In this document: positions 1,462-1,612 of the stretch, piece by piece | Layout of the letters: the number at the start of each line of letters is the position of its first letter | How positions within the stretch are numbered: position 1 is the first letter of the stretch | Assembly (NCBI GenBank): GCA_003524095.1 | Contig: DOEE01000003.1 | Span: forward strand, 258,148 to 322,147 | DNA length: 64,000 nucleotides | Direction of reading: 5' to 3' | From: Clostridiales bacterium | GTDB lineage: Bacteria > Bacillota > Clostridia > Christensenellales > UBA1242 | Made by a program: the position numbers and the translations under genes | The notes under the pieces: model-generated | Database searches by the model: none | Told to the model about the DNA's origin: nothing | What the model saw: the letters and a program-made list of their open reading frames with translations, nothing else

Positions 1462-1612
1462 TGGTAGTCCCAAGGGGAAACGTCTATATGACGGAAGTCA
1501 TATATCTCGGGTGGCAGTAATACTGCCGGGTTCCCGAGTACCTTCCCTGTGGAACAGGGGTTTTGATACGTAAGTATCTGTTGCTGTAAGCAACACGAGT
1601 TCCCTTGGGAAA
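1462..1612 (+). ncRNA. candidate tRNA-Glu-derived structured element (unclassified; strand assignment tentative)
   Basis: About 50 percent GC within very AT-rich spacer. An 11-bp closing stem pairs 1468-1478 with 1600-1610. It contains five hairpins: 1485-1504 (GGAA loop), 1506-1538 (nested), 1545-1559, 1565-1578 (GTAA loop) and 1579-1595. 1462-1478 is identical to 1642-1658, the tRNA-Glu 3' end including CCA. 1553-1562 plus 1596-1610 match the tRNA-Glu sense sequence AACAGGGGTT/CGAGTCCCCTTGGGA at 24 of 25 positions, split by a 33-nt insert. Confidence 0.4.

Follow-up and report, generated by a model that had tools for sequence, protein, structure and literature searches.

The tRNA-linked repeats (TLRs) of Escherichia coli, known since 1978, comprise the 178-bp repeats of tyrT and tyrV together with the RttR/RtT RNA (RF00391), as well as rrA, rrB, and rrF, which lie behind rrn operons (PMC8144298; Egan & Landy 1978 and Rudd 1999, as cited there). 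They carry an 18-19-nt copy of the 3' end of the upstream gene, and tandem units occur at ten loci (PMC8144298). The rrB unit sits between two terminators; rrA, rrB, and rrF have been shown experimentally to be read-through small RNAs, and the tRNA-linked members have no known function (PMC8144298). In the literature that we searched, we found no description of TLRs outside enterobacteria.

We analyzed a 64-kb stretch of a clostridial genome (hereafter the window), in which an initial annotation had pointed out a 150-nt structured element next to a tRNA-Glu gene. Judged by its sequence and predicted fold, this element belongs to a family of structured, tRNA-linked modules that is specific to one genus; the modules have a TLR-like build and are not homologous to the enterobacterial repeats. 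The structure described in the annotation is borne out, and the element is one copy of a family rather than unique.

Results

A GC-rich element behind tRNA-Glu repeats the tRNA 3' end in both orientations

The element starts 30 nt past the CCA of tRNA-Glu(UUC), on the same strand (Table 1). Three of its parts match the tRNA gene, each as the initial annotation had read them: (i) the last 17 nt, 1462-1478, are identical to 1642-1658 at 17 of 17 positions including CCA, and the identity stops at both edges; (ii) 1596-1610, in the opposite orientation, matches the tRNA-Glu sense sequence at 14 of 15 positions; and (iii) AACAGGGGTT (1553-1562) equals tRNA-Glu positions 45-54, in the variable and T-stem region, at 10 of 10. 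The last two pieces are separated by an insert of 33 nt (1563-1595). Read on the plus strand, these pieces had been described as a tRNA 3' half with an insertion in its T-loop. The description is exact as sequence; what it depicts is the mirror image of two antisense arms, A1 and A2, on the tRNA strand. In the tRNA-Glu element, A2 is hairpinned (H3) with a short sense copy, ACAGGG.

The GC content of the 150-nt element is 0.49 versus 0.18-0.21 in its flanks, which agrees with the annotated value of about one half against AT-rich surroundings. Across the whole 64-kb window, a 17-mer is repeated within 300 nt at three places only. The direct repeat of the tRNA 3' end bounds only 163 bp here, free of ORFs, and we found no noteworthy ORF inside the element. 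Two independent human-gut assemblies carry this stretch with 100% identity, which shows that the element is not an assembly artefact.

Table 1. Features of the tRNA-Glu(UUC) locus in window coordinates, listed in the direction of the tRNA strand
Feature	Position	Strand	Description	Evidence
Promoter-like site of tRNA-Glu	1739..1767	-	TTGACA-17-TATACT	11/12 consensus matches
tRNA-Glu(UUC)	1642..1716	-	CCA encoded; reference for deriving A1, A2, and S	tRNA finders (ARAGORN, Rfam)
Terminator 1	1610..1634 (hairpin 1618-1634)	-	AAGCCCAUUAAGGGCUU plus U-run; tRNA/element boundary	
A1	1596..1610	-	5' arm UCCCAAGGGAACUCG; antisense to tRNA-Glu ~56-70; predicted to pair with S, closing the fold	14/15
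H1	1580..1594	-	Variable perfect hairpin GUUGCUUACAGCAAC	
H2	1565..1578	-	Variable perfect hairpin GAUACUUACGUAUC	
A2	1545..1562	-	AACCCCUGUU (1553-1562); antisense to tRNA variable loop and T-stem 5' strand	
Conserved core	1502..1541	-	GUA-C-UCGGG / AACCC bulge / GGCAGU-loop-ACUGCC / A / CCCGA-G-AUAU; family signature	Model R1
H4	1486..1503	-	Variable hairpin AUAUGACUUCCGUCAUAU	
Linker	1479..1487	-	AUAGACGUU	
S	1462..1478	-	Sense copy of tRNA-Glu 3' end, UCCCCUUGGGACUACCA	17/17
Terminator 2	1426..1451 (hairpin 1427-1451)	-	AAAAGCCAUUAGGGCUUUUUUU; diverged duplicate of terminator 1	

We compared the element with described RNA families. RF00391 (RtT RNA; gathering score 45 bits) gave no match in 1200-4800 with the threshold relaxed to E <= 10, and a search of the whole window at the gathering score was likewise negative; as a positive control, four E. 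coli tyrT units scored 133-137 bits with this model. A scan of Rfam, one of the checks suggested in the initial annotation, matched no family, whether at gathering scores or under permissive settings. Weak matches to MicC, rli52, and STnc490 (E 2.5-8) were regarded as noise. On either strand of 1462-1612, ARAGORN and RF00005 called no tRNA or tRNA pseudogene; they found three true tRNAs only.

The element belongs to a family spread over a third of the tRNA loci

A first search of the whole genome with the element matched parts of the central hairpin. Ten copies of this core, each downstream of a tRNA gene and on the tRNA strand, were then identified in the 1.19-Mb genome by pattern search and with a covariance model (R1). 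Their loci are Glu(UUC), Glu(CUC), Ser(GGA), Arg(ACG), Ile(GAU) with two copies, a tandem array at Leu(GAG), and a tandem pair at Tyr. Further units with other core variants were recovered behind Ser(GCU), Ser(UGA), Leu(CAA), and tmRNA by a census of extra copies of the last 18 nt of each tRNA. There are also decayed units behind Ser(GGA), Arg, and fMet, and a truncated unit behind Met. All core types taken together, ~13 of the 36 tRNA/tmRNA genes carry a downstream module on the same strand. The recurring scaffold can be written as A1 - H1 - H2 - A2 - (G)GUA-N-[UCG...CGA stem]-N-AAAUAU - H4 - AU(A/U)GAC - S, and a motif AUAGAC, AUUGAC, or AAUGC stands ahead of S in most family members.

Several properties that define TLRs operationally (Rudd 1999; Stenum 2021) are found in this family. 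The element lies immediately downstream of a tRNA gene and has the same direction of transcription, as do nearly all members that could be placed. Its 3' end is identical to that of the upstream gene, over 17 of 17 nt here and most commonly over an exact 21-mer in the family. Modules are repeated at about 13 of 36 loci and stand in tandem at Leu(GAG), at Tyr, and in a related genome, G012. Common descent with the enterobacterial units did not emerge: there is no covariance-model similarity, and the core is confined to one genus. An integrase-borne island would share the repeat, which is present, but no integrase or mobility gene lies within it. Three mobile-element identities were rejected as well: a retroelement (no RVT_1 match in the genome), a bridge RNA of an IS110 element (no DEDD transposase in the genome), and an integrase-linked site (the two tyrosine recombinases of the genome both lie elsewhere and are uncorrelated with the presence of the element across the genus).

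Two other units are found close to the element within the window. A second unit, at 2283-2400 on the minus strand behind tRNA-Met (2415-2491), has another core variant, UUUCGAACCUUGGUAGUUGUCGCUCUUCACAAGUGCAAGCAC (2288-2329), and resembles the first unit behind tRNA-Arg(ACG) and those behind Ser(GCU) and Leu(CAA). It ends after GUGCAAGCAC, without H4 and S, and is followed by the terminator of a convergent ORF (1868-2275). A decayed third unit, at 4331-4420 on the minus strand, follows the initiator tRNA (4456-4533), which ARAGORN missed and which Rfam matches at 50 bits. It consists of A1 GUGGGAUUUG (4406-4415), two hairpins (4371-4404), and A2 AACCACAC (4362-4369); its core is degenerate and the S copy is absent. 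Three consecutive small ORFs (177, 171, and 160 aa; 2643-4226), the first without a Pfam match, lie between tRNA-Met and tRNA-fMet. The window also holds two giant ORFs, one at 1-1155 on the minus strand that runs off the window start (3621 aa per the gene call in other assemblies) and one of 5134 aa from 10381 (10381-25785, plus strand).

The two tandem arrays of this genome, at C3:424,681-425,700 (tRNA-Leu(GAG)) and 457,682-458,300 (tRNA-Tyr), each end in a partial unit cut within H1, followed by unrelated DNA. The Leu(GAG) array is broken by runs of N, which are assembly gaps.

Three segments of each module follow the neighboring tRNA

We compared the anatomy of the modules at 22 loci from this genome and its relatives, covering at least 14 tRNA species and tmRNA. 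S repeats tRNA positions C56 to A76 in the sense orientation, exactly over all 21 nt at 13 of the 22 loci. A1 is antisense to tRNA positions ~56-68(73), and A2, which lies 1-24 nt ahead of the core, is antisense to positions ~46-57. Together, the two arms amount to one contiguous antisense copy that is split within the T-loop by H1 and H2. Even with the conserved T-loop left out, A1 and A2 fit the cognate tRNA over non-cognate tRNAs (mean z = 3.5, Wilcoxon P = 3e-6). The part of A2 over the variable loop tracks the local tRNA, reading AACCCCUGUU behind Glu(UUC) and AACCCCUGAU behind Glu(CUC), and S tracks the species-specific T-loop variants of tRNA-Glu (CGAGU, CGAUU, and CGAAU). At five loci S has diverged from the tRNA; in all five, A1 is closer to the tRNA than to its own S.

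These comparisons indicate that the tRNA-derived pieces are not there by chance and that each module is tailored, in sense and antisense, to its own tRNA. What had been proposed for a single locus, namely an element built from both orientations of the tRNA-Glu 3' end, recurs as the same three pieces at more than 20 loci, tracking the neighboring tRNA.

Compensatory changes point to selection on the fold

The minus strand of the element folds at -64.8 kcal/mol (z = -8.0) and the plus strand at -70.1 kcal/mol (z = -6.4), and on either strand none of the 200 dinucleotide shuffles used as controls folds as well. The closing stem around five hairpins, described in the initial annotation, is predicted on both strands. 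A multi-hairpin fold is predicted in common for 22 elements, and all well-preserved members share it, with unrelated sequences in H1, H2, and H4. The single-stranded 3' tail beyond the closing stem varies between 2 and 11 nt among members, and exact acceptor mimicry is therefore not conserved.

We counted covariation on the core and on orthologue pairs, as the variable hairpins are unalignable by MAFFT. Among 41 distinct core sequences, two-sided changes occur in 5 of 12 pairs. Compensatory cells number 51 versus 15 +/- 3.6 in shuffled alignments (0/500 shuffles as high), and slide controls are flat. The Leu(UAG) orthologues of G010 and G024, which are 90% identical, differ by six stem substitutions that make up three compensatory pairs and no broken ones. 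When eight orthologue pairs were pooled, 23 base pairs were compensatory, 13 had changed on one side, and 41 were broken, many of these in hairpins that had been replaced. This pattern of substitution indicates that the structure of the element is under selection.

We note that the inner helix of the core contains a U-C mismatch (alignment A7, columns 21/55), which is kept in 31 of the 41 distinct sequences. Its conservation suggests a specific non-canonical contact or a protein-recognition point.

Fold energies and G-U counts were also considered as indicators of the functional strand. By this measure the antisense strand looked better, with the plus strand folding better in 20 of 22 members; the composition-matched shuffles account for the difference (plus-strand advantage -4.3 observed versus -6.6 in shuffles), and we rejected the inference.

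The family is confined to one genus and turns over quickly

The core is present in 18 of 25 genomes of the genus, with 2-12 copies each and arrays of at least four units in G012. It was found in 0 of 16 genomes from other families of the order and in 0 of 200 further genomes of the class, five of the same family included. In relatives and metagenome contigs, nearly every placeable copy follows a tRNA or tmRNA gene (at least 14 species). A metagenome scan recovered only five true cores, all of them behind tRNAs; a longer, autonomous version with a protein gene did not turn up. Twelve pattern matches in viral contigs were rejected as chance (covariance-model scores <=15 bits, high GC, no tRNAs). 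The nearest named record is an uncultured Clostridia MAG from the human gut. On one metagenome contig (L086:2531-2694; ULWL01034501.1), three core hairpins with 58-nt spacing stand behind a Val-Gly-Cys-Leu(UAA) tRNA operon, a core-only mini-array that differs from the ~180-nt units elsewhere.

Among 22 species compared at the orthologous tRNA-Glu(UUC) locus, 9 carry a unit; these units end in CCCCUUGGGACUACCA and have several different cores. The other 13 have a plain terminator, including G013, the closest species, which has an identical tRNA and flanks that are not alignable to this locus. The comparison of species indicates that units are gained, lost, or replaced quickly. We found no strain-level empty site: the two other assemblies with the neighboring ORF are 100% identical here. 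Near-identical scaffolds at different tRNAs were also not found, with only the ~40-nt core in common, and hence there is no sign of a recent jump.

A shorter tandem unit in a sister genus, G209, has the same design with another core, which means that the design reaches beyond the core family.

The modules may be read-through RNAs with arms for the cognate tRNA

tRNA-Glu has the one strong promoter (1767-1739, minus strand), which is the sole candidate for driving the element, by read-through. The initial annotation had found no convincing promoter on either strand, and we agree that the element has none of its own; plus-strand matches are weak (9/12). The locus is laid out as a strong tRNA promoter, terminator 1, the element, and terminator 2. 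The hairpins on both sides, already recognized as terminator-like, have their U-runs on the minus strand. Terminator 1 looks competent, and the element begins where its U-run ends. On the tRNA strand, a terminator comes after nearly every unit of the family, including units where its sequence differs from that of terminator 1. The tRNA strand is the better functional candidate, since it carries every copy and each copy ends there in CCA and a terminator. And because tRNA-Glu has the sole strong promoter, the U-runs are on the minus strand, and terminators are kept family-wide, we read the product as a read-through RNA.

Our preferred reading, to which we give an even chance, is that terminator read-through yields a structured RNA from the element, linked to the tRNA, which has a tRNA-like end and arms able to pair with the cognate tRNA. 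Transcription would proceed on the tRNA strand from the tRNA-Glu promoter, pass terminator 1, and end at terminator 2. A1 would pair with S to form a long helix with a free ...ACCA tail, imitating the acceptor/T-arm half of tRNA-Glu, and this tRNA-like end might let tRNA end-processing enzymes trim and stabilize the ~150-nt RNA. The RNA would carry four inner hairpins and the conserved core, which is probably a protein-binding site. A1 and A2 together are antisense to ~25 contiguous tRNA nucleotides (46-70), and S could replace the tRNA's own 3' strand. The RNA could thereby open and join its cognate tRNA, or the precursor of that tRNA, in a strand-swapped complex, either within the read-through transcript (in cis) or in trans, as a tRNA-specific partner RNA. 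The layout is the same as that of E. coli rrA, rrB, and rrF, for which read-through is experimental (PMC8144298).

Computed folds are consistent with such a complex. In the predicted swapped fold, A1 and A2 hold the 3' half of the tRNA and S pairs with its 5' acceptor strand. The read-through transcript folds at -113.2 kcal/mol versus -102.6 for independent folds, and the gain on cofolding is -12.4 kcal/mol with cognate versus -2.4 with non-cognate tRNAs (P = 5e-6), energies that follow largely by construction from the antisense arms and that ignore tRNA tertiary structure and base modifications. These model figures would speak to capacity and not to action. Several points weigh against the preferred reading: the element lacks a promoter of its own, terminator 1 looks competent, the 3' tail varies in length among members, perfect Watson-Crick hairpins such as those of the element would suit single-stranded DNA equally, fold energies favor neither strand after control for base composition, and a number of features would fit a site of DNA recombination as well.

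Other readings of the same evidence

The modules could act as DNA instead, as attachment or boundary sites of a cassette system that works at the tRNA T-loop and 3' end with a recombinase in trans. S would then be a duplicated att core, and empty units would be what remains after cargo is lost. We consider this unlikely, while acknowledging that several observations favor it. The identity block has a sharp start at C56 and covers the 21 nt through CCA, and the att cores of T-loop-crossover integrases match just such a block. The repeat of recent copies takes in the terminator as well (45-50 nt). Two Ile-type units, 98.9% identical and with a 211-bp repeat, enclose a 9-kb gene block, and the gap between tRNA-Met and tRNA-Glu is 15 nt in G020 versus ~700 nt here, with a unit and an ORF in between. 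Presence is patchy between species, arrays are tandem, and the several core types among the nine species with a unit at tRNA-Glu indicate turnover. However, the window contains no integrase, none was recognized when the translations of the 9-kb island were read by eye, and the two tyrosine recombinases of the genome do not track the elements. There is no RT or IS110 transposase in the genome and no copy in viral contigs, and most units are empty. The lack of near-identical scaffolds at different tRNAs argues against recent jumps. An att site specified by a protein would also leave unexplained the use of one scaffold for at least 14 tRNAs, the antisense arms, and the compensation in stems.

The 9-kb block occupies C3:387,496-397,383, and its 211-bp direct repeat consists of the tRNA-Ile 3' end and 190 nt more. 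Its translated ORFs, as we read them, include a response regulator, two sensor-kinase-like membrane proteins, lipoproteins, an HTH protein, and an antirepressor-like protein. Between tRNA-Met and tRNA-Glu (1717-2414), a truncated unit and an orphan, lysine-rich 135-aa ORF (1868-2275, opposite strand, no Pfam match) separate the two genes; this interval looks like an insertion behind tRNA-Met.

That the modules are non-functional by-products, namely partial copies of the tRNA in direct and inverted orientation, generated by slippage, template switching, and gene conversion at the palindromic T-arm of a heavily transcribed gene and kept through selfish or neutral persistence, appears distinctly unlikely to us. 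The T-loop sequence TTCGAA is palindromic and could seed both orientations. Tandem arrays of variable copy number with assembly gaps, the decayed copies at Ser(GGA), Arg, and fMet, and the truncated Met unit would all fit. Such an origin does not account for a conserved, covarying scaffold of non-tRNA sequence at the loci of different tRNAs, nor for terminators kept after nearly every unit despite sequences that differ from terminator 1. It is also at odds with modules at a third of the tRNA loci of a reduced 1.19-Mb genome. The stem substitutions between the G010 and G024 orthologues are compensatory, and a purely neutral origin would not fit such changes.

The arms and S might instead act as a folded single strand or guide that rebuilds a copy of the T-arm/acceptor region of the tRNA gene, either through folding or through pairing to the two DNA strands, and aims a general host enzyme at the cognate tRNA or its gene, which we hold to be quite improbable. 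The geometry would suit it: both strands are matched around one point, with A1 and A2 antisense to 46-70 and split in the T-loop and S sense to 56-76. A1 follows the tRNA and not S where the two differ, and one scaffold is retargeted to at least 14 tRNAs. Against it, no candidate enzyme was found in the genome (no IS110, no RT, and two tyrosine recombinases only), no recently moved copies were seen among the scaffolds, and the argument is one of analogy.

A functional plus-strand RNA, with a 17-nt start fully complementary to the tRNA-Glu 3' end including CCA (resembling a primer-binding site) and, within it, a tRNA 3' half whose T-loop is expanded, is very improbable, for its slightly better folding, here and in 20 of 22 members, reflects base composition, its weak promoter matches lie upstream of a hairpin that can terminate plus-strand transcripts, U-run terminators are retained on the tRNA strand in every unit, and no reverse transcriptase is encoded in the genome.

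Discussion

The TLR layout is known from E. coli, and the E. coli TLRs share part of the design described here. What is new is a non-homologous family with this layout in gut Clostridia, and with it a clearer rule: a conserved scaffold in which three segments are rewritten for each tRNA. That the design recurs in unrelated sequence speaks for function or for a specific generating mechanism more than for accident. Our preferred reading of the modules as tRNA-linked read-through RNAs makes three predictions for the family: (i) read-through transcription, (ii) tRNA-type end processing, and (iii) pairing with the cognate tRNA. The family also draws attention to the stretches that follow tRNA genes in these genomes, where DNA turns over rapidly and cargo is inserted without local integrases.

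A broader idea, which we regard as improbable, is that the modules are programmable adaptors matched to tRNAs, in which a common structured scaffold bears interchangeable arms for reading the two strands, or the two halves, of one tRNA around the T-loop. If this were true, a general host enzyme could be aimed at a tRNA or its gene, and cassettes could be recombined behind tRNA genes without a dedicated integrase. Alternatively, adaptors of this kind could sequester, splint, or substitute for the 3' part of a damaged tRNA through the strand-swapped complex.

Comparable designs are found in several known systems. The CTX-phage attP(+) site, integron attC sites, and IS110 bridge RNAs are structured, contain copies that match a target in both senses about a single point, and conserve stems while their sequence varies. 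The likeness to the modules is one of analogy; unlike these systems, the modules have no matching enzyme in the genome and no evidence of mobility. The att cores of tyrosine integrases of the T-loop-crossover class likewise flank DNA with a ~20-nt repeat of the tRNA 3' end, from T-loop to CCA, and are patchily present among related genomes. In contrast to islands with att cores, the repeats here enclose ~160 bp of non-coding DNA without an integrase, a single scaffold serves many tRNAs, and the clostridial family has antisense arms and covariation in its stems.

The tRNA-like domain of tmRNA and the 3' tRNA-like structures of viruses resemble the element in that a terminal helix is formed from the 5' and 3' ends, with a single-stranded NCCA, and that a large structured insert replaces the body of the tRNA. 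The element differs from them in having no T-loop or D-loop mimic, no Rfam match, and a tail of variable length. Its end is copied from the neighboring tRNA and is not a fixed, alanine-type end.

The E. coli TLRs are the closest parallel. They, too, come directly after a tRNA or rRNA gene and share its strand, singly or as several tandem units; each unit closes with a repeat of the gene's last 17-21 nt, CCA included; and the placement between two terminators, shown for rrB, is the same. The tyrV unit has an A1-like 5' segment, GGGGAAGGAU, antisense to the repeated tRNA end AUCCUUCCCC. The two groups share no sequence or covariance-model similarity, and their hosts belong to different phyla. 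An A2, covering the 5' strand of the T-stem and the variable loop, is part of the clostridial family and is not clearly found in the tyrV unit. Unlike the E. coli TLRs, the clostridial units are built on a conserved scaffold, GGUA - core hairpin - AAAUAU - hairpin - AUAGAC.
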